From Candidatus Yanofskybacteria bacterium RIFCSPLOWO2_01_FULL_39_28 (GTDB lineage Bacteria; Patescibacteriota; Minisyncoccia; 2-02-FULL-40-12; GWA2-44-9): DNA of 64,000 nt. The notes beneath the pieces are model-generated. The model was not told the DNA's origin and ran no database searches. It saw nothing but the letters and a program-made list of their open reading frames with translations. The DNA is taken from NCBI GenBank assembly GCA_001794635.1, contig MGKE01000007.1:8774-72773 (forward strand), written 5' to 3'. The position numbers and the translations under genes are program-made. Of the stretch, positions 2,913-61,443 are shown piece by piece; position 1 is the stretch's first letter, and every line of letters begins with the position of its first letter.

Positions 2913-4619
2913 ATGAATAAGTATTCGAAAGTAACAACTTCAGGCTCAAACAACTTTGATGTTATAGTAATTAATACTATTTTTACTGTTTCCTACTTCT
3001 CATCAAAAGATGGCATAAAGACTTCCTCTAAAGACAAAGCGGATTACTTATCAAGCGTAGAGGAAGAAATAAAAAAATGCTCTGCTAAATTAAAAGATGG
3101 TGGTTTTATGTTTATATATGGCTTACCTGCCTGGCTACCCGAATATTTTAATCTCATAAGAAAAGACTTTACATTTAGATACTGGATTGCGATTGATGGT
3201 GGCCATAAAGATACATCAATAAAAAACAATATCCCCAAGAGTCACGTAGGCCTACTAATGCTATCAAAAGGAAATAAATATGGCCCATTAAATACCAAGC
3301 AGGAAAAGATTAGCTATTCGGCTTGCTTGCATTGTAGAAATAATCTTAAAGATTGGGGTGGAAAGAAACACTTGATGAACAAAAATGGAACAGCAATATC
3401 AGATGTATGGAAAGATTTTTATCATAAGAATGGCCATATTGTTGATTCTATCGGGATTAATCTCGAGTTGGTAGATTTTGATAAAACATCGATAAAAATT
3501 GACGGCAAGATAATCCCTCCTCAGATATTAGATAGGATATATAACTTAACCAATAGGATTGGCTATAGATTTGGACTCCACAATATAATCGTCCCACCTC
3601 CAAAGAGTGTTTTTAAAACACCGCCAAGTGTTGACACAAAAACCAGAGCTGCAGATTTAGACAAAGTAGTTATGGCGAATTGTATAGAAGAAATGAAAAG
3701 GCTATATAAAAGATATCCAAATGGTTGTTTTGATATTTTCTTTGCAGACCCTCCCTATAATTTAGATAAGAAATACGACAAGTATAAGGATACGAACAAT
3801 GAGACTGAATATATAAACTGGTCAAATGAATGGCTAGATTTAGGGATTAAACTCTTAAAACCGGGCGGGTCATTATTTTCCCTTAATATCCCGGAGTGGT
3901 CTCTTCATCAAGCAATTTATCTAAATGATATCGCATATTTTCAAAATTGGATTGTCTGGGATTCTATGTCAGTTCCTTTGGGCAAGATAATGCCTGCCCA
4001 TTATTCTTTATTGCACTATTCTCAAACTCCGAATGTTAAATTCTGCGGCCATAAATGGATTGATAATCCTGGTTATTGCCTAAGAGCTTCATGTATTAAA
4101 GCAAGGACGGTTTTGGGTGATGATAAGAAAGTAGTACTTGCTGATATATGGTCTGACGTTCACAGAATAAAACATAAGAAAAATAGAGATTACCATCCAT
4201 GTCAATTGCCTCATAAATTAATGGAGAGGATTATTAGCCTATTTTCAAAAGAGGGAGATTTAATATTCGACCCATTCGCCGGAGCAGGAACAACTGCTAT
4301 CGTAGCAAAGAAGCTAAATCGCCATTATTATACAACCGAAATTTCTGCGGACTATATAAATATAACAAACCGTAGATTGAAAGAAGTAGGTGAATATGGA
4401 GATATAGTTCTGCGCTCAGTTAAACACGACAACAATGGACTAACAAAAAAGAGCGTAGAATTAGTCGTACAAAAATTAGCATTAGAGCTAAGTAGGAAAC
4501 CCACCCTAGAAGAGTTGTTAAATAAAGGTAAGTTCAAGAGGACCGATTTAACAAAACTGTATGGAGATGAAAATAGGGCCTTAAAAGTAGCTAGAGTTGC
4601 TCTTACAAATAGTAATTAA
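2913..4619 (+). CDS. DNA methyltransferase, beta-class N6A/N4C family, with a degenerate N-terminal copy of its own core
   Basis: FFADPPYNL (motif IV) precedes FDPFAGAGTT (motif I). Residues ~60-190 echo ~300-420 (GGFMFIYGLPAW/GGSLFSLNIPEW, FRYWIAID/FQNWIVWD, SHVGLLML/AHYSLLHY, SDVWKDF/ADIWSDV) but lack both DPPY and FxGxG. Confidence 0.85.
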   Translation: MNKYSKVTTSGSNNFDVIVINTIFTVSYFSSKDGIKTSSKDKADYLSSVEEEIKKCSAKLKDGGFMFIYGLPAWLPEYFNLIRKDFTFRYWIAIDGGHKDTSIKNNIPKSHVGLLMLSKGNKYGPLNTKQEKISYSACLHCRNNLKDWGGKKHLMNKNGTAISDVWKDFYHKNGHIVDSIGINLELVDFDKTSIKIDGKIIPPQILDRIYNLTNRIGYRFGLHNIIVPPPKSVFKTPPSVDTKTRAADLDKVVMANCIEEMKRLYKRYPNGCFDIFFADPPYNLDKKYDKYKDTNNETEYINWSNEWLDLGIKLLKPGGSLFSLNIPEWSLHQAIYLNDIAYFQNWIVWDSMSVPLGKIMPAHYSLLHYSQTPNVKFCGHKWIDNPGYCLRASCIKARTVLGDDKKVVLADIWSDVHRIKHKKNRDYHPCQLPHKLMERIISLFSKEGDLIFDPFAGAGTTAIVAKKLNRHYYTTEISADYINITNRRLKEVGEYGDIVLRSVKHDNNGLTKKSVELVVQKLALELSRKPTLEELLNKGKFKRTDLTKLYGDENRALKVARVALTNSN

Positions 4620-5589
4620 ATATCTCCTTAAGTAGCTCTAGGTTTTTGTAATTGACGGCATAATCACAAGAGTTCACAAACCTGCCAACATCATTTTTGC
4701 CCCTAGCCATCCAGCCCGCTCCATCAATAAAATTAATAAATAGCACATCTTTTTTATTGGCCGCATTGTATCTCTTTATCGCAGAGAATAACGCATCGTT
4801 GGCGTCTCCTTTTTTAGTTTGACCAGAGGCAGTGGTTTTTGTATAGCTGCTTTCAATCAATATTTTCGGGTCTTTTTTATTAGGAATTATTAAATCTATC
4901 TTCGGGTTTCTTTCAGCTCCTGTGGTTGTTCTCTGGTAGTAACTTTCTAAAAGTTCTAGAGAACCCACTTCATATTTACCGTCTGGCACAAGTTTGCCTA
5001 TAATCTCTCTTTCTACAAATGTTCCTACCTTTTGACTAAATCTGCCTGAATATTTATCTTCCAACATAAGCCTCAATTTTGAAGTGTCTTTTTTAAGCGA
5101 GGATAAATTATTTATTACAAAACGTCTAAGGATTATCGGCTCATCAGCAAGTATTTCCATTAATAGTTTATCTTTGTGACCGCTTGTAAATATCCGAGAG
5201 AAAACTTTTATTAATTCCGGGTCTTCATTTATGCTTTCGAGATCGGCAACAGAAAGACCATATTTTTCATTAATAGCCGGAAGAATATAATTTTTTATCT
5301 TTTCATTTGATATGCCCGTGACCGCAAGGATTATAGCCCATCCAATATTTTCTTCTTTTGCTCCTTCGTTCATCATCAGGTCATATTCAGGCCGTCTCTT
5401 TATCGTTAAATCTATTACCTTTTTGAAATTATTTTCTGGGTTATCATCAAACTCTAATTTAGAAAAATCCTCTATAATGCTTTTAATAAAATTATCAAAT
5501 TGAGACGCCAAATCGGGCATTGGTATTGCCGGAGAAAGGGATTGATAGAATTCACCTAGAGATAGTCTCTGTGGTTTATTGTCGGTCAT
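4603..5589 (-). CDS. Putative type II restriction endonuclease (DpnII/MboI-like C-terminal core)
   Basis: Convergent with the methyltransferase and overlapping it by 17 nt. KIDLIIP..ILIESSYTKTTASGQ..FINFIDGAGW resembles, from memory, DpnII RFDFVI..LYLIEVNFYSGSGS..MWITDGQGW. Confidence 0.45.
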   Translation of the reverse strand: MTDNKPQRLSLGEFYQSLSPAIPMPDLASQFDNFIKSIIEDFSKLEFDDNPENNFKKVIDLTIKRRPEYDLMMNEGAKEENIGWAIILAVTGISNEKIKNYILPAINEKYGLSVADLESINEDPELIKVFSRIFTSGHKDKLLMEILADEPIILRRFVINNLSSLKKDTSKLRLMLEDKYSGRFSQKVGTFVEREIIGKLVPDGKYEVGSLELLESYYQRTTTGAERNPKIDLIIPNKKDPKILIESSYTKTTASGQTKKGDANDALFSAIKRYNAANKKDVLFINFIDGAGWMARGKNDVGRFVNSCDYAVNYKNLELLKEIFNYYL

Positions 5590-8545: not shown

Positions 8546-9118
8546 TTACCTTTTGGACGTATTCTTATAAATTTCAACCACTTCTGATAATCCACTTTCG
8601 CCCTCGGTCCAATCCATAGCCCAGAGGGACCTATCAAATTCTCTCAACGAGGAGCAGTACTTCTTCCAAACACCTTTGCAGATATCTACATAATTGAAAT
8701 AATCTTCTGGTTTAAAATTTTCAGCTTTTGAAGGTAATTTTCTTTCCGCACATTTTTGCTTCTCTAGTTCCATTAAAGAATTTAAGGCCCTATAATCTAA
8801 AACCGTAAATTCTTCTGGATAGCAGACAGTTAAAATAGCCGAAGCAATGGCAATACCTACTCCTTTTATACCCAATAATTTCTTCAGTTTTTCCATTCTG
8901 TCTGTAGCCAGCCACAATTCCTTACTAAGTTCTTCTATGGATTGACCGTTCCATTTTGAAGCAATTTTTATACCAGAGGGCTTTCTTTTCCAAAAGACAA
9001 TGGCAAAAAACTCATTCCCTGTTAGACAGTGGTTTCTTTGAAAATTATTATAAACTTCTTTAAATAAATAACTTTCTAATTCGGAGGGGTAATATTTTAG
9101 ATAGTCCCGCAGTTCCAT
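8546..9118 (-). CDS. Hypothetical protein with a helix-hairpin-helix-like segment
   Basis: LLGIKGVGIAIASAILTVCYPEEFTVLDYR resembles an HhH/glycosylase-like motif. I place the start at MELRDYL (9118); the upstream 47 codons of the track ORF run through a GC-rich structured intergenic region. Confidence 0.6.
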   Translation of the reverse strand: MELRDYLKYYPSELESYLFKEVYNNFQRNHCLTGNEFFAIVFWKRKPSGIKIASKWNGQSIEELSKELWLATDRMEKLKKLLGIKGVGIAIASAILTVCYPEEFTVLDYRALNSLMELEKQKCAERKLPSKAENFKPEDYFNYVDICKGVWKKYCSSLREFDRSLWAMDWTEGESGLSEVVEIYKNTSKR

Positions 9119-10937: not shown

Positions 10938-12518
10938 ATGAATAAAAAAAATGCAATTGGATATTGCCGTGTCAGCACCGATGAACAAGCCAAACACGGT
11001 CTTTCTTTAGATGTTCAGGAAGAATCCTGTAAAATGGCCATCCAAAGTGATGGATATGAACTACTAAAAATAATCAGGGACGAAGGTAAGAGTGGCGGAA
11101 ACCTTAATAGAGCTGGGATGAGGGAATTAATATCGCTGGTCATAAATAAAAAAATAGATGCCATTTATACTATAAGCGGTGACCGCCTAAACAGAAATAC
11201 CCTGGAATACATGCAGTTGAGAAAGTTGCTACGAGAAAATGATATTGATTTGAAATACATTAACCAAGCAAACACTGATGACTCGGCCATGGGAAGAACT
11301 ATGGACACGGTTCTAGCTTCCTTTAACGAATTCCAGAGATTGCAAACATCAGAAAAAGTTAAAAAGGTTTCAGCCGCTAGGGTTGAAGCTGGTTATTTCC
11401 CTACGGGAGCCCCTATCGGCTACAAAAACGATATTAATCCAGACCCAAATGCCGACAGACTGGCGAAAAAGGTTATAGTTCCCGATGCAATGGCTCCACT
11501 GGTAACAGAGGCCTTTAAATTCTTTGCTACGGGCAATTTTAATGGTTACGACCTTTGTAATTTACTAAACCAGAAAGGATTAAGGACAAGGTACGGTAAG
11601 CCGATGCTACCAAGCCGATTCTATGAACTATTAAAAAATAGAATATATCTTGGAGAGGTTCATCATGGCAAAAATCATAACCCTAACGGAAAGCACAAGC
11701 CCCTTATAGATAAGGCGACATTTGACAGGGTCCAGTCCATTCTAGACGGCCACAATAAGCATGCCTGCAGACGTAGGAAGTATTGTTGGCTCTTGGGCGG
11801 CTTTGTATACTGTGCCAGGCATGGAAAGCGATATACAGCCGAGTGGCATCTAAACAAAAAGTTGGCTTATTACCACTGCACCAACAGGAATGGGTGCGGA
11901 AAATACATTGAGACCAACAAATTGGAGGCCTTAATAGCCGATAAGTTTAAAGACTTAGAATTTAACCCTGAGTTTATTGATAAGATAATAGAAAAGGCAA
12001 AAACGGCTTTTTATGCAAGCAGAGATGAGTATGATGCCAAAAGACAGGCCTTGGTAAACCAGAAAACGGCTTTTGAGGCGAAATTAAAATCAGCTGAAGA
12101 TAAGTTGTTCTCGGAAATATTGTTAAGTGATGACTATAAGAGGATAAGATATGAAGTTAAAACAGAAATTGAAAGCATAGAAGAACAATTAGCGCATCTA
12201 TCTCAAAGGCAAGAGGTCAAAGTGGACATAGCAAAAGAAATTCTGTCATTTACGAAAAATATTTACCTGACTTACAAAAAAGCTCCGCCTCATATTAAAA
12301 GGCATTACTTGAGTCTGTTTTGGGACAGATTTGAGATCCAAGATGGAGTTATAATAAAATCCGTTTCCTCTATACTGTTCAACCATCTTTTAGATCTGGA
12401 ACAGATCTACCTTAAAAATCAAAACCCCCAGATTACTGGGGATTCTGACGTTCTTATAAATATAGCAACAGAGCTCCGCGGCCAGGACTCGAACCTGGAA
12501 CCATCTCCTTACACATGA
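10938..12518 (+). CDS. Large serine recombinase (integrase); its 3' end is read from the tRNA-Asn 3' exon
   Basis: AIGYCRVSTDEQ catalytic motif, recombinase domain, Cys cluster YCARHGKRY..YHCTNRNGC, coiled coil. The last ~45 nt (ELRGQDSNLEPSPYT) are the complement of the tRNA T arm and acceptor, and the stop lies 7 nt inside the intron. Confidence 0.85.
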   Translation: MNKKNAIGYCRVSTDEQAKHGLSLDVQEESCKMAIQSDGYELLKIIRDEGKSGGNLNRAGMRELISLVINKKIDAIYTISGDRLNRNTLEYMQLRKLLRENDIDLKYINQANTDDSAMGRTMDTVLASFNEFQRLQTSEKVKKVSAARVEAGYFPTGAPIGYKNDINPDPNADRLAKKVIVPDAMAPLVTEAFKFFATGNFNGYDLCNLLNQKGLRTRYGKPMLPSRFYELLKNRIYLGEVHHGKNHNPNGKHKPLIDKATFDRVQSILDGHNKHACRRRKYCWLLGGFVYCARHGKRYTAEWHLNKKLAYYHCTNRNGCGKYIETNKLEALIADKFKDLEFNPEFIDKIIEKAKTAFYASRDEYDAKRQALVNQKTAFEAKLKSAEDKLFSEILLSDDYKRIRYEVKTEIESIEEQLAHLSQRQEVKVDIAKEILSFTKNIYLTYKKAPPHIKRHYLSLFWDRFEIQDGVIIKSVSSILFNHLLDLEQIYLKNQNPQITGDSDVLINIATELRGQDSNLEPSPYT

Positions 12519-12990: not shown

Positions 12991-13032
12991 AATAATCTAA
13001 ACGGCTCACCATGGTGAGCCGTTTAGATTATT
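12991..13032. repeat. 42-nt perfect palindrome centred on CCATGG
   Basis: AATAATCTAAACGGCTCACC|ATGGTGAGCCGTTTAGATTATT equals its own reverse complement. No flanking T-run. Confidence 0.9.
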
Positions 13033-31698: not shown

Positions 31699-31786
31699 TG
31701 GCGGAGGCGGAGCGATTCGAACGCTCGATACCTTGCGGTATACTCGCTTTCCAAGCGAGCGCACTAGACCACTATGCGACGCCTCC
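31699..31786 (-). tRNA. tRNA-Ser(GGA), CCA encoded
   Basis: Acceptor GGAGGCG/CGCCUCC, anticodon arm CUCGC-UUGGAAA-GCGAG, long variable arm UAUACCGCAAGGUAUC, T arm GAGCG-UUCGAAU-CGCUC, then GCCA. Confidence 0.9.
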
Positions 31787-31845
31787 AAATAAAATCATGA
31801 TACTATCTTTTAAAATTACCAACAATATTACCAACTATGATGTGT

Positions 31846-31875
31846 CTTATAATTGTGCATATGCACAATTATAAG
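31846..31875. repeat. 30-nt perfect palindrome, 17 nt downstream of PaaX-like gene A
   Basis: CTTATAATTGTGCAT|ATGCACAATTATAAG. Near-copy of the palindrome at 32471-32512. Confidence 0.95.
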
Positions 31876-31892
31876 CAACTTTAAATATGCTT

Positions 31893-32420
31893 TTATAGAT
31901 TGTAATATCTCTTTAATTCTTCTTCCCTAGAACCAATGGAATTTGCCACGATAACATCTACATAATCAAATAAACCAAGTTGTTTGCATAAATCTCCAAG
32001 TTCTTCCTCGCACTTATAAGGAATAGTGAAAACACTTTTTTGCAGTATTTGAAAATCAAGATTTTTTAATCTGCTTCTTAGCCAGTTTCTTTCTTTATTC
32101 AAAGAATTTGGAATATCAAAAATAATCACTCGCCACTTATTGTCCCATCTTTTGTTTTTATTTTTTAAAGCAAAGTACTTAATTCTGGAATATTTAAACC
32201 AACCTATTCCTTGTTGTGTGAACTTATAACTATCTCCTCTCAAATTGGATAAAAAACCTCTGCCCTCCAGGTTTGTTAAACCCTTGCGAAATCTTTTATA
32301 TTCTGGCCCACTTACATGCCAACCTTTATAATAAATTGGTTGCCACTGCCACGTATCGTAAACATCAATGCCAAATCCTCCAATTGACTTAATTAATTTT
32401 AATACAAAATCTCCTTTCAT
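31893..32420 (-). CDS. PaaX-like protein: winged helix + Cas2-like-fold domain (gene A)
   Basis: KWRVIIFDIPNSLNKERNWLRSRLKNLDFQILQKSVFTIPY is the beta-alpha-beta pattern of the PaaX central Cas2-like domain. The N-terminal part is wHTH-like (FRKGLTNLEGRGFL). Confidence 0.7.
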   Translation of the reverse strand: MKGDFVLKLIKSIGGFGIDVYDTWQWQPIYYKGWHVSGPEYKRFRKGLTNLEGRGFLSNLRGDSYKFTQQGIGWFKYSRIKYFALKNKNKRWDNKWRVIIFDIPNSLNKERNWLRSRLKNLDFQILQKSVFTIPYKCEEELGDLCKQLGLFDYVDVIVANSIGSREEELKRYYNL

Positions 32421-32470
32421 GTTTAAACTTATAGTTTAATCGTAACTTTAAACTCATATTAACACTTCAT

Positions 32471-32512
32471 CAGTGTCTTATAATTATGCATATGCATAAT
32501 TATAAGACACTG
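32471..32512. repeat. 42-nt perfect palindrome, 50 nt upstream of PaaX-like gene A
   Basis: CAGTGTCTTATAATTATGCAT|ATGCATAATTATAAGACACTG equals its own reverse complement. Confidence 0.95.
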
Positions 32513-32556
32513 TGTTCTATATTGCAATACCCACCAGTGGAAATAAAAAGAGCTTT

Positions 32557-33147
32557 TTATAAGCTCTTTATTTTTTCTGCCAATTTTGAATAGAGTTCTC
32601 GCCGATGATTAATCTGCTCATGCTCTTCGTGGGTCAGCTCCTGATAGAGTTTTTTGAATCTTGGTATCCAGAAGATTGACCTAAACGGATAGCCAGGTTC
32701 ACATTTTATTCTCTGCTCCTCGGTAATAAAACCTTCAGTACTCCCCCTTTCAATTATCAAATTCTTTCCGTCATAGTAAGCACCGACGGCAATTAAGCGC
32801 GTTGTTCTTTTCTCCCACGGAATACCCTGCAGTTTGGCCAAAGCCGTATCAATCATTTCTTGGTCAGTCATCTCATATCCCAGCCAGCGACGGGATTTAA
32901 CCCCAGGTTCCCCCCCATTCAAAAAATCAATCTCCAATCCAGCATCGTCAGCCACGCAAGGAATACCAGACCATTTAAAATACGCCTTGGCTTTCAAAAT
33001 TGCATTTTCTTCAAACGTATTGCCGGTTTCCTCAATATCAGGAGCATCGGACAAGTCTTTAAGTGAGCTAACCTCGAAGTCTGTACCTAGAAACATGCCA
33101 ATTTCCTTAGCTTTGCCGGGATTTTTTGTCGCAACCAATATTCTCAT
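32557..33147 (-). CDS. rdgB: Non-canonical purine NTP pyrophosphatase (RdgB/HAM1 family)
   Basis: ILVATKNPGK..E, ETG.TFEENA.LKA, ADD(A/S)GLE, FRS.F motifs. Confidence 0.9.
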   Translation of the reverse strand: MRILVATKNPGKAKEIGMFLGTDFEVSSLKDLSDAPDIEETGNTFEENAILKAKAYFKWSGIPCVADDAGLEIDFLNGGEPGVKSRRWLGYEMTDQEMIDTALAKLQGIPWEKRTTRLIAVGAYYDGKNLIIERGSTEGFITEEQRIKCEPGYPFRSIFWIPRFKKLYQELTHEEHEQINHRRELYSKLAEKIKSL

Positions 33148-33184
33148 GGATTCCCTTTTTTAAATTAGCTGAGGTAATTCTAGC

Positions 33185-59544: not shown

Positions 59545-59628
59545 CGTGGATCCGGGCCTGTAGTTTATGTAGTAAAATACTGCCATCGATACGCAGCGAA
59601 ACGAGTGCAAATCTCGTCGGGTCCACGC
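59545..59628 (+). ncRNA. Candidate small RNA between two terminators
   Basis: Putative promoter TTGTAA-17 nt-TATAAT (59510-59538) embedded in the rnj terminator. The body closes with CGUGGAUCCGG/UCGGGUCCACG and contains the hairpin CGAG-UGCAAAU-CUCG. It is followed by the terminator at 59629-59655, which works on the plus strand too. Confidence 0.3.
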
Positions 59629-59655
59629 TAAAAAATCTCCGAAAGGAGATTTTTT
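59629..59655 (-). terminator. Bidirectional intrinsic terminator
   Basis: AAAAAATCTCC-GAAA-GGAGATTTTTT. Confidence 0.75.
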
Positions 59656-60610
59656 AGTTATCTATGATTTTCTGAATTTTAATATCACTAACCAGTTCAA
59701 AGTAATGGTTGCCACTAGCTACTCCGCGACTTTCAATTTCTCCTGAAATGATCATCTGATCGCCAACTATTATGTTTGGTAAGAAAGTAAAATCAAGAAT
59801 ATTACTTCTGGAAATAAGGTAGTGCTCACAAATAGAAGCCTCATTATCGCACTTTTTGAACCAGAGATAATTTTGATATGTGGGTGAAACAAGCGAAGCA
59901 TCTCCTCTATATTCAACGGTTTTATTCTCAATCTTATCAATAAACCTGAACATGGAGAGGATTTGGTTGAATTCATTAGATTTTAAAAACTCTTGTCCTG
60001 AATCAAACTTAATTACCGAATCATCCTTTAAAAAGAGCTGGTAATAAGAATAGCCCGGCAGTCCTGCAAATTCCACATAAGTACCCGAATATAAAGATTC
60101 TTGCCTAAGGATATCTTCCTGATATTTAAAATAATTTTTAATAAAGATGTTCAGATCCTGCTTGTTTGCTTTATGAATAGTAAAATCAAACACTAGCCAC
60201 ATGTCGGCTTCTCTTTTATTTATATTACCTATCCGCCACAAATCATTTCCTGCATCTGTTTTGTTTTCTTGAACTTCTAAATAATCCGGATACCTGAACT
60301 CAAACCCATACTCCTCATTGCGGTAGGTTTGCCAGTTGGCAAACGGGTCTTGAGTTTTTTGCTCGGCTCTTTTTTGCTGAAGCTCTTGGATTTGTTTCTG
60401 ACCGTCTTCGGCTATTTTCTTGGCTTCATTAAAATTACTCCAAGCCAGATATGTAGCGTAACCATAAACAACCGCACCGGTTATAACCAAAGCCCCAATC
60501 AAAGCCAAAAAGTTAGGAGTAAAGTTTGCTTTGATTAATCCTTTAAGCGATATTACCGATTGAGAAGTTTCTGATTGAATTTGAGTAAGATCGTTTGGTT
60601 CATTATCCAT
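59654..60610 (-). CDS. Membrane-anchored hypothetical protein (318 aa)
   Basis: TM FLALIGALVITGAVVYGYATYLAW followed by an extracytoplasmic domain. No recognisable motif. Confidence 0.75.
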   Translation of the reverse strand: MDNEPNDLTQIQSETSQSVISLKGLIKANFTPNFLALIGALVITGAVVYGYATYLAWSNFNEAKKIAEDGQKQIQELQQKRAEQKTQDPFANWQTYRNEEYGFEFRYPDYLEVQENKTDAGNDLWRIGNINKREADMWLVFDFTIHKANKQDLNIFIKNYFKYQEDILRQESLYSGTYVEFAGLPGYSYYQLFLKDDSVIKFDSGQEFLKSNEFNQILSMFRFIDKIENKTVEYRGDASLVSPTYQNYLWFKKCDNEASICEHYLISRSNILDFTFLPNIIVGDQMIISGEIESRGVASGNHYFELVSDIKIQKIIDN

Positions 60611-60679: not shown

Positions 60680-60715
60680 ATTAGGTAAATTCATCATATG
60701 ATGAATTTACCTAAT
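60680..60715. repeat. 36-nt perfect palindrome, 30 nt downstream of PaaX-like gene B
   Basis: ATTAGGTAAATTCATCAT|ATGATGAATTTACCTAAT. Confidence 0.95.
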
Positions 60716-60745
60716 TTAAACAACTCAATAAAAAACAAGAGTGGG

Positions 60746-61312
60746 TTAGACTAATATAATGCCGTTTCTTTTCTCAAAATCATAACGTAATTGTTCCTCC
60801 CCTGAAATCTCATGGCAAGTTATTTGGTGAATATATCTTTCAACTTCAAAAGCTTTGCCTACAACAGCGATTTCATTTTTACATTCAAAGGGGTAAGCCC
60901 AGACACTTCGCTGAAACATAACAAAACCAAGTTCTTTTAATTTTCCAAGTAAAGCGGCTCTTGCTTTATATTTCTTAGCTGGAATATCAAAAATAACCAA
61001 TCGCCAATTTTTATCCCACTGCTTCGGAGTTTCAACGGAAAGATTATCTAGGTTATATTTACGGGTATACTTTCGACCAGCCTTTGTCGTTGTAATAATA
61101 TACATACCATCCGAACTAGGTTCTATATTAATAAACCCTTTGCGTCTAAGGTGATATAAGCTGCTTCTAAATTGCTTCCATTTTCTTCTCTTTAGTTCTT
61201 TTTGGATCGCACCAACAGCCCTAAGGCCAAAATAAGGATTAGTGGCCGCAACTAAAACTACGCCTCCGACCACAAGTGTTGTTAATAAAATTCTTGAAAA
61301 AGGTTTATCCAT
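60746..61312 (-). CDS. PaaX-like protein: N-terminal TM + winged helix + Cas2-like-fold domain (gene B)
   Basis: NWRLVIFDIPAKKYKARAALLGKLKELGFVMFQRSVWAYPF parallels gene A. wHTH-like LYHLRRKGFI. N-terminal hydrophobic LLTTLVVGGVVLVAA. Confidence 0.7.
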   Translation of the reverse strand: MDKPFSRILLTTLVVGGVVLVAATNPYFGLRAVGAIQKELKRRKWKQFRSSLYHLRRKGFINIEPSSDGMYIITTTKAGRKYTRKYNLDNLSVETPKQWDKNWRLVIFDIPAKKYKARAALLGKLKELGFVMFQRSVWAYPFECKNEIAVVGKAFEVERYIHQITCHEISGEEQLRYDFEKRNGIILV

Positions 61313-61324
61313 AATTATTTCTTA

Positions 61325-61370
61325 TTACTATTAGGTAAATCTATCATATGATAGATTTACCTAATAGTAA
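61325..61370. repeat. 46-nt perfect palindrome, 12 nt upstream of PaaX-like gene B
   Basis: TTACTATTAGGTAAATCTATCAT|ATGATAGATTTACCTAATAGTAA. Confidence 0.95.
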
Positions 61371-61443
61371 ATTGTGTATACACATATCGCTTACTATAAT
61401 TCTACGTAAGCATTGAGCCAATAAAAAGAGGGCTATTTGCCCA

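Follow-up and report, generated by a model that had tools for sequence, protein, structure and literature searches.

A 64,000-nucleotide stretch of the genome of Candidatus Yanofskybacteria bacterium RIFCSPLOWO2_01_FULL_39_28 (contig MGKE01000007.1, forward strand, positions 8,774 to 72,773; hereafter the window, in whose numbering positions are given) carries two genes, which we call A and B, for short PaaX-like proteins, and each of the two genes stands between two long palindromes of its own. We observed the same layout across a large family of such genes in the Candidate Phyla Radiation (CPR/Patescibacteria). On the strength of sequence comparisons, we think it rather probable that the encoded protein, which we term mini-PaaX, is a dimeric autorepressor accompanied by its own operators, one at the promoter and an auxiliary one after the stop codon, the latter acting through looping or as a roadblock.

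Gene B (60746..61312, minus strand) encodes a protein of 188 amino acids (aa) that is predicted to consist of a hydrophobic N-terminal helix, a winged helix-turn-helix (wHTH) and a Cas2-like PaaX_M domain, without a PaaX_C domain. Its upstream site, a putative operator overlapping the core promoter, is a perfect 46-nt palindrome, TTACTATTAGGTAAATCTATCAT|ATGATAGATTTACCTAATAGTAA (61325..61370, with a 36-nt core at 61330-61365), located 12 nt 5' of the ATG. The downstream site, a putative auxiliary operator that might be a looping partner or a roadblock, is a perfect 36-nt palindrome, ATTAGGTAAATTCATCAT|ATGATGAATTTACCTAAT (60680..60715), located 30 nt past the stop codon. The positions and the perfection of both palindromes, as described in the original prediction, were verified, and so was its observation that a CT/AG versus TC/GA swap is compensated in both arms: each arm has two adjacent positions at which the copies are not alike (CT versus TC), and the opposite arm mirrors the change (AG versus GA). 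The 36-nt core common to both palindromes, ATTAGGTAAATNNATCATATGATNNATTTACCTAAT, is centred on ATCAT|ATGAT. It occurs at only two places in the window, even with up to three mismatches allowed, and it did not occur in any of 100 dinucleotide-preserving shuffles.

Gene A (31893..32420, minus strand) is an open reading frame (ORF) of 175 aa and a paralog of B, the two proteins being 35% identical across 138 aa. Its upstream site (32471..32512) is a perfect 42-nt palindrome centred on GCATATGC, one arm of which is overlapped by a TTGCAA-17-TATAAT promoter-like match. Its downstream site (31842..31879) spans 38 nt with two mismatches and has the same centre within a perfect 30-nt core (31846..31875); it lies 14 nt past the stop codon, or 17 nt if the perfect core is taken, and 56 nt before a tRNA-Ser(GGA) gene. 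The arms of the A palindromes are unrelated to those of B. The coordinates therefore bear out the earlier statement that gene A is laid out like gene B around unrelated palindrome arms. The same prediction had spoken of two independent instances; two bracketed genes are indeed present, but they are not independent, since A and B belong to one family as diverged paralogs. The A protein is also 100% identical to one from Candidatus Yanofskybacteria bacterium RIFCSPHIGHO2_02_FULL.

Both proteins match the Pfam family PaaX_M (PF20803) with 65.8 bits for B and 71.4 bits for A against a cutoff of 24, and this domain is present in all 120 proteins among the homologues listed. Neither A nor B matches PaaX_C (PF08223), and the B protein stops ~10 residues past PaaX_M. 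PF07848 gave no Pfam match at E ≤ 1. The PaaX equivalog model TIGR02277 aligns with residues 48-174 of B and scores ~26 bits (26.1), compared with a cutoff of 264.55. The Cas2 models fall close to their thresholds: TIGR01573 scores 23.4 (B) and 22.6 (A) against 24.5, and Pfam PF09827 scores 19.4 for B, which is under its cutoff of 23.8, and 25.2 for A, which is just over it. Searches of the proteins with Pfam, NCBIfam and PADLOC returned only PaaX_M and these weak Cas2 matches, with no transposase or recombinase, and no PHROG matched the family.

The AlphaFold2 model of B has a mean predicted local distance difference test (pLDDT) score of 78, which exceeds 90 in a ferredoxin-like domain and falls below 50 in the first 32 residues. 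The model shows a three-helix winged HTH, with helices at 32-39 and 42-57 (the recognition helix) and a beta-hairpin wing at 61-75. The top Foldseek match of this model in the PDB is the E. coli PaaX structure 8a39 (E 6.5e-5 over 138 columns), followed by Rv0674 and then by many Cas2 structures and VapD, while a search of the PDB by sequence found nothing under E 0.04. In an alignment of 28 family sequences, W99, D100, W103, R104, F108, D109, R118, Q134, S136 and P141 are invariant. As in Cas2 and VapD, the ferredoxin-like fold carries an Asp at the end of beta-1 (D109), an Arg in helix 1 (R118) and the QxSV[FW] motif in beta-2 (Q134-x-S136), and these hallmarks are thus among the invariant positions. 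The earlier description of a PaaX-like protein with a Cas2-like core is upheld by the PaaX_M matches of A and B and by the Foldseek matches to PaaX and Cas2. B reads as a truncated PaaX, with a predicted winged HTH and a Cas2-like PaaX_M domain and without the ligand-binding C-domain. The N-terminal transmembrane helix that had been proposed for B fared less well. The segment is hydrophobic, with a mean Kyte-Doolittle value of 2.08 over 19 aa, but a transmembrane helix is unproven, as the AlphaFold confidence there is below 50 and the homologous segment is transmembrane-like in hydrophobicity in only 35 of 72 family members (B is one of them and A is not).

The homologues measure ~145-240 aa, and all belong to CPR/Patescibacteria (Yanofsky-, Taylor-, Azam-, Nealson-, Doudnabacteria and others). 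In public records, the family members are named "hypothetical" or, often and misleadingly, "CRISPR-associated endonuclease Cas2". A profile search of 1.84 billion cluster representatives returned 1,108 clusters (at 50% identity) at E ≤ 1e-30 and 3,579 at E ≤ 1e-10. For the comparisons below, the 80 best genomic loci were fetched, and 79 loci could be analysed (77 external ones plus A and B). At least 13 genomes among these 80 loci have 2-4 paralogs each; no paralogs were found in tandem in the family loci. Six-frame profile searching of the window found no third family gene, no pseudogene and no other Cas2-like ORF, and there were no viral relatives in 2.9 million viral contigs.

Could the two-site bracket be a property of the whole family? 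We compared the 170 nt before each gene with the 170 nt after it and scored the best shared 40-mer per locus. In 74 of the 79 loci, the two sides shared a 40-mer with at least 28/40 matches (median 33/40), whereas none of the 272 control window pairs from the same loci reached 28, the maximum being 27. Furthermore, the density of long zero-loop palindromes within 120 nt of the gene ends was 26 times that in the remaining parts of the loci. The repeat unit stops ~17-24 nt from its centre, the site measures ~36-40 bp, and longer terminal inverted repeats past the site were absent except in loci L025 and L074. The upstream centre lies a median of 42 nt before the ATG and the downstream centre a median of 29.5 nt after the stop codon, and the distance from centre to centre is 604-866 bp, mostly 620-680 bp. 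The sites are asymmetric in 56 loci; there, their relative orientation is direct in 22, inverted in 12 and ambiguous in 22. As a detail of these orientations, reverse-complementing the asymmetric upstream site of L025 or L041 gives the downstream site exactly (40/40), with L012, L016, L026 and L047 also listed, and the inverted repeat of L025 extends 31 nt outward from the centre.

All family sites were then aligned at their centres, and arm-to-arm complementarity was measured per position. Counted from the centre, it was 0.85-0.95 for positions 1-4, dropped to 0.54-0.61 for positions 5-8, rose again to 0.81-0.94 for positions 10-17 and was at the background level of 0.28 beyond position ~22. 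This profile makes the site tripartite, with a conserved centre, loose spacers and outer inverted repeats. The family-wide central 8 bp are GCNA|TNGC (TGCNA|TNGCA with the flanking base), each spacer is a loose, A/T-rich segment of 4-5 bp, and the outer inverted repeats of 8-9 bp are lineage-specific. The three-zone pattern is, as read from the alignment, that of a protein contact site and not that of a continuous stem. Mismatches between the arms were G.T in 131 cases and A.C in 102, a weak RNA-type bias that is not clearly strand-specific; the partial symmetry of the spacers and these near-equal numbers argue against an obligatory continuous hairpin. An Rfam search at the palindromes returned no family, only sub-threshold, miRNA-like hairpin noise. 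Some site centres, such as CATATG, CCATGG and CGATCG, resemble type II restriction sites.

The sites vary together with the proteins. Similarity among the four half-sites of one locus was 0.78, compared with 0.32-0.48 between loci, where it rose with wHTH identity (Spearman 0.32; in a Mantel test, 0 of 300 permutations reached the observed correlation). Between paralogs in one genome, site similarity was 0.36, and such dissimilar sites are what cognate, non-cross-reacting protein-operator pairs should look like. The module family of proteins plus cognate sites that had been proposed from A and B alone is therefore supported, as 74 of 79 loci are bracketed compared with 0 of 272 controls, the sites co-diverge with the protein and the sites of paralogs differ.

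At closer range, the B orthologues that are 71-87% identical (L081, L083, L084, L086/L089 and L091) all lie in an RNase J-membrane protein-B-(GNAT)-TrpRS context, and the A orthologues at 71% and 53% identity retain ITPase upstream and/or tRNA-Ser(GGA) downstream. This conserved synteny indicates that the modules are vertically inherited. The 36-nt B cores are 36/36 identical in five of the eight site comparisons with orthologous loci, namely the upstream core in L081, L083 and L089 and the downstream core in L083 and L086. The flanks of these identical cores show 44-84% identity for the upstream-site loci, and the flanking 50 nt are ~44-66% identical in L083, L086 and L089, whose proteins are 77-78% identical to B. 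The comparison indicates that all the B core positions, including the spacers (CTAT upstream and TCAT downstream), are under strong purifying selection. In L084, whose protein is 71-73% identical, the outer repeat is changed from TTAGGTAAAT to GCTGATAAAT in both upstream arms and in the downstream half-site retained by the contig. The downstream site of L081 has a third symmetric spacer, CTCT, inside a 52-nt perfect palindrome.

The B core had seven exact matches in JGI metagenomes, of which four flank B orthologues and three are orphans. One orphan lies between the HtpX and ITPase genes of L085, 12 nt before the ITPase ATG; another lies ~99 nt upstream of the gene for ribosomal protein L25 in L087; and the third, in L090, overlaps the tgt stop codon and abuts a TTGACA-17-TATTAT promoter-like match of a 100-aa ORF. 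All three are upstream of co-directional genes, and no family gene or degraded remnant of one was found by them. Going by their sequence and placement, the orphan sites are consistent with a small regulon. At L085, a 44-nt perfect B-type palindrome fills nearly all of the short HtpX-ITPase spacer (3546-3594), while the 37-nt spacer of the window (33148-33184) has none, so that this solo site is a presence/absence polymorphism within an apparent operon.

The L085 locus is informative in a second respect. Its HtpX shares 79% identity with that of the window and its ITPase 72%, and module A, that is, the gene and both palindromes, is missing between ITPase and tRNA-Ser(GGA) (4200-4317, compared with 31699-32556 of the window). 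Consequently, a whole module can be gained or lost, and the palindromes travel with the gene rather than being terminators of the neighbours. The possibility that the palindromes are merely neighbour terminators kept where the gene is absent, which the original prediction had raised against itself, is thereby answered for A; for B, there was no syntenic locus without the gene to compare, and related metagenomes contain solo B-type palindromes with no family gene near them.

The upstream and downstream sites differ in their relation to promoters. We counted as -10-like any hexamer with at least 5/6 matches to TATAAT within 20 nt after a site centre in 72 loci, and there were 63 of these after upstream centres compared with 21 after downstream centres. 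The upstream hexamers peak at +16/+17, which is the edge of the outer repeat, and the upstream site therefore covers the -35 element and the spacer of the gene's own promoter, a textbook placement for occlusion. In the window, promoter-like matches overlap both B sites and the A upstream site. The one at the B upstream site is TTTACT-17-TATGAT (minus strand, 61371->61343), in which the palindrome centre serves as the -10. A TGTTATAAT -10-like element of the next gene lies ~65-75 nt beyond the B downstream site.

The downstream sites were also considered as intrinsic terminators, and this was rejected: T-runs accompany 25% of the downstream and 21% of the upstream sites and are thus not enriched, and no T-run follows the downstream palindrome on the gene strand for either B or A. 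Nor is there a canonical G+C-rich hairpin with a T-run at the 3' end of gene A or gene B. Across the family, a separate canonical terminator was found for 12 of 72 genes, five of these being the sites themselves, and for 12 of 47 upstream neighbours; the scarcity of independent terminators lends weak support to the idea of a roadblock. The genes upstream of the two modules do have recognizable terminators: for A, a canonical hairpin with a T-run, AAAGAGCTTATAAAAAGCTCTTT (32547-32569), and for B, a G+C-rich hairpin with a T-run, GGGCAAATAGCCC-TCTTTTTATT (61400-61440), which was read by eye and received no flag in the terminator scan.

Taken together, how might such a module work? The B and A proteins would be minimal PaaX-type DNA binders, most likely homodimers joined by the Cas2-like domain, and the dimer would recognize a palindromic operator in three parts, ~36-40 bp long. 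Its pair of winged helices would read the lineage-specific 8-9-bp outer inverted repeats, while the Cas2-like dimer would sit over the conserved central 8 bp. At the upstream site, which overlaps the gene's own core promoter, the bound dimer would occlude RNA polymerase and so cause autorepression. The downstream site would be an auxiliary operator of the same module, most likely through looping of the ~650-bp gene between two bound dimers; alternatively or additionally, it may separate the gene from its neighbour as a protein roadblock or an insulator. The solo copies at other places in related genomes would constitute a small regulon. Looping seems to be the most economical mechanism by analogy with lambda OL/OR or lac O1/O2.

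Several points weigh against the autorepressor reading. Binding to the sites, the dimeric state, repression and looping or roadblock action are all steps that we infer. The invariant Cas2 hallmark residues make a catalytic role of the mini-PaaX protein possible. The B promoter match is weak, with 9/12 consensus positions, and such matches are no more numerous in the region than in shuffles. The two sites show no helical phasing (Rayleigh p 0.6-0.96), although this is neutral on looping at such a length. Within ±3 kb, 70 of 72 loci have no third copy of their own site (L017 and L074 are the exceptions), and no further A or B site occurs elsewhere in the window; with third copies absent locally, the regulon is visible only through the three metagenomic orphan sites. 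Finally, the spacers of the A and B lineages are perfectly symmetric in four variants (CTAT, TCAT, CTCT and CCAT). Such symmetry exceeds the needs of dimer recognition and hints at a hairpin or cruciform or at gene conversion between the arms; in these lineages, there may be arm-to-arm homogenization via hairpin or cruciform intermediates or an added structural role.

The second site could instead serve the next gene, as an operator or upstream activating site of the membrane-protein gene after B and of tRNA-Ser after A, in which case there would be no self-contained bracket. We consider this unlikely. It is favoured by the downstream gene being co-directional in 50 of 69 loci, by the A-tRNA-Ser(GGA) linkage that is kept down to 53% identity, by a similar membrane-protein gene following B in orthologues and by orphan B-type sites standing ~60-100 nt upstream of co-directional genes. 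However, the neighbour is convergent in the other 19 of 69 loci, and the downstream site is about equally palindromic for co-directional and convergent neighbours (mean palindrome score 16.0 vs 15.3). Moreover, the site hugs the stop codon, whereas anything from 11 to 467 nt separates it from the start of the next gene; there is no enrichment of -10-like elements immediately past the downstream sites; and the downstream neighbours in 62 loci are unrelated, diverse housekeeping genes (TsaE, MurB, FtsW, RNase HII and others). The 25 neighbour families that were listed from these 62 loci include no conserved partner gene, Cas1, transposase or integrase, and 8 of 60 loci have a tRNA gene no more than ~250 nt from the module, which makes no general rule. 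The closeness to the stop codon, the equal symmetry and the diversity of neighbours indicate that the second site belongs to the regulator gene and not to the neighbour. In the window, the two candidate targets are the gene for a 318-aa membrane-anchored protein (59654..60610, minus strand), which is co-directional with B, lies downstream of it and has a similar counterpart after B in L081, L083 and L086, and the tRNA-Ser(GGA) gene (31699..31786, minus strand), which lies directly downstream of module A. Each is a possible, though unproven, additional target of the respective downstream site.

A bolder possibility, to which we give a slim chance, is that the module is a self-contained, diversifying pair of a Cas2-fold protein and a palindromic repeat, in which the dimer reads or processes the repeat centre and the two repeats delimit the unit. 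Such a unit might be an insulating or roadblock cassette, or it might be a site-specific nuclease or recombination system from which solo repeats are seeded. If true, it would be the first tie, sequence-specific and outside CRISPR, between a Cas2-fold protein and palindromic repeats, and it might show how the link between Cas2 and repeats arose.

It is improbable, in our judgement, that the module is a selfish or mobile one, with the Cas2-like domain as an active nuclease or strand-transfer enzyme on palindromes that are element ends or homing sites and with REP/RAYT-like solo copies. Such an element would account for the presence of module A in the window and its absence from the syntenic HtpX-ITPase-tRNA-Ser locus L085, for solo B-type palindromes with exact CTAT/TCAT spacers in three contexts (one of these spacers being free of a palindrome in the window), for the invariant Cas2 signature residues, for the centres resembling type II restriction sites and for the occurrence of either relative orientation of the sites. 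On the other hand, the B orthologues share one context and the A orthologues keep ITPase and/or tRNA-Ser; there are no identical multi-copy genes, as paralogs in one genome are ~35% identical and have different sites; neither the viral contigs nor PHROG contain relatives; transposase, integrase and Cas1 are absent among the listed neighbour families; and the repeat is confined to the ~40-bp site, with solo sites only about one per ~50 kb. A large serine-recombinase element beside an A-like gene (L094/L095) was examined as tied to the palindrome and rejected, as these contigs diverge from L093 only at position 4952. That point lies ~210 nt past tRNA-Ser(GGA) (4652-4741), beyond the downstream palindrome, and marks an integration polymorphism in two of three otherwise identical contigs.

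Very improbable is the last alternative, nucleic-acid hairpins (RNA 5'/3' stem-loops, terminators or single-stranded DNA hairpins) independent of sequence-specific binding of double-stranded DNA by the encoded protein: the A and B palindromes are perfect with variable positions compensated in both arms, a terminator scan flags both upstream palindromes (on the plus strand, antisense to A and B) and separate canonical terminators are rare, but spacer positions 5-8 are only 54-61% complementary across the family, the G.T and A.C counts show no clear strand-specific pairing bias, T-runs are about as frequent downstream as upstream, the -10-like elements at the 3' edge of the upstream sites would leave much of the site untranscribed, no Rfam family matches, and the paralog-specific sequences that co-diverge with the protein are left unexplained.

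The autorepressor reading has a close precedent. The E. coli PaaX operator is TGATTC-N27-GAATCA (~39 bp, with widely spaced inverted repeats), and PaaX autorepresses Px by steric hindrance (PMC9493321). PaaX of E. coli W (PDB 8a39) represses the paa (phenylacetate) catabolon in response to phenylacetyl-CoA. Like it, mini-PaaX has an N-terminal winged HTH, as predicted by the model, followed by a Cas2-like middle domain, a long operator of widely spaced inverted repeats (here ~36-40-bp sites) and upstream sites that overlap -10-like elements. Unlike PaaX, it lacks PaaX_C, the helical domain that binds the effector, B measures 188 aa instead of ~305, and TIGR02277 stays far under its cutoff; paa genes are absent nearby in the A and B neighbourhoods and among the downstream neighbours of the 62 loci; the family is confined to CPR/Patescibacteria, with several paralogs per genome that have different sites; a central element of 8 bp is conserved in the site; and there is a near-universal second site right after the stop codon, of which we found no such report for PaaX.

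Repressors with two distant operators are well known. Lambda CI (OL/OR), LacI (O1/O2) and DeoR bind a promoter operator plus an auxiliary operator hundreds of bp away, and the lambda cI gene itself sits between two operator regions. Unlike in these systems, the near-identical single sites here hug one ~570-bp gene, the layout is family-wide, and looping is a proposal. Like Cas2, mini-PaaX is accompanied by partly palindromic repeats of 36-46 bp; unlike Cas2, it has a predicted extra wHTH and only two repeats, which flank the gene itself. The Cas2 models score close to their thresholds. No CRISPR array was found in the window. REP-associated tyrosine transposases (RAYT) are flanked by cognate REP palindromes, and the mini-PaaX genes resemble them in being flanked by their own palindromes, in having paralog-specific repeats and in the solo copies of related genomes. 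Unlike RAYT, the protein is not an HUH/Y1 transposase, there are two repeats per gene and about one solo copy per ~50 kb instead of hundreds, and the loci are syntenic and vertically inherited.

The C-domain, the paa context and the equivalog score that define PaaX proper are not found here, nor are the cas1 gene and the array that define Cas2, which makes the module a probable variant of the PaaX-type autorepressor. A full-text literature search, of incomplete coverage, returned no paper tying PaaX-like or Cas2-like CPR proteins to flanking palindromes. The earlier statement that the system could not be matched to a described one therefore holds in part: a PaaX-type protein with a spaced inverted-repeat operator is known, while the shortening to two domains and the additional site past the stop codon are undescribed. 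From the sequences compared here, what is apparently new is a short, CPR-only, two-domain PaaX-type form with many apparently specific protein-site pairs and a conserved, putative second operator past the stop codon.

Some further features of the window and of related loci may be recorded. The neighbours of A are ITPase, HtpX and tRNA-Ser, and those of B are an ORF that, by eye, we take to be of GNAT type from its sequence, TrpRS, the membrane protein and RNase J. Abutting the B upstream site on its upstream side is a perfect palindrome of 12 nt, TGTGTATACACA (61373-61384); it and its surroundings are kept in L081 and L082 (orthologous loci at 87% identity) and not in L083, and it could be either another binding site or an element of the promoter. 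An Rfam tRNA model matches at 59554-59625 (plus strand), in the interval from RNase J to the membrane-protein gene, with 38.9 bits against a gathering threshold of 29, and ARAGORN is silent there. A perfect 42-nt palindrome, AATAATCTAAACGGCTCACCA|TGGTGAGCCGTTTAGATTATT (12991-13032), shares the family-type centre ACCA|TGGT with L021, L054, L060 and L071. It follows a large serine recombinase ORF (10938-12518, plus strand) at a distance of 470 nt and precedes a 71-aa zinc-ribbon-like ORF by 78 nt, with no PaaX-like gene near it, and could be either an orphan site belonging to a paralog that lies outside the window or something unrelated. In L017, at 2.2 kb downstream of the family gene and past tRNA-Pro and tRNA-Ala, there is a perfect 40-nt palindrome, CTTCGCGCAATATTCCGCATATGCGGAATATTGCGCGAAG (centre 5718), whose inner 13 nt are shared with the upstream site of that gene and which is, by this resemblance, a candidate extra target site.

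The CPR/Patescibacteria have tiny genomes and very few characterized regulators. With more than 1,100 clusters (at 50% identity and E ≤ 1e-30) and 2-4 paralogs in at least 13 genomes, mini-PaaX could be a main transcription-factor family of these bacteria. Its dozens of presumed protein-operator pairs with distinct specificities would help in studying the evolution of wHTH specificity and could supply synthetic biology with parts. The near-universal, putative second operator after the stop codon is unusual and opens questions of looping, roadblock termination and insulation in minimal genomes. Furthermore, the association of a Cas2-fold domain with palindromic repeats outside CRISPR offers a lead on the evolutionary history of Cas2.

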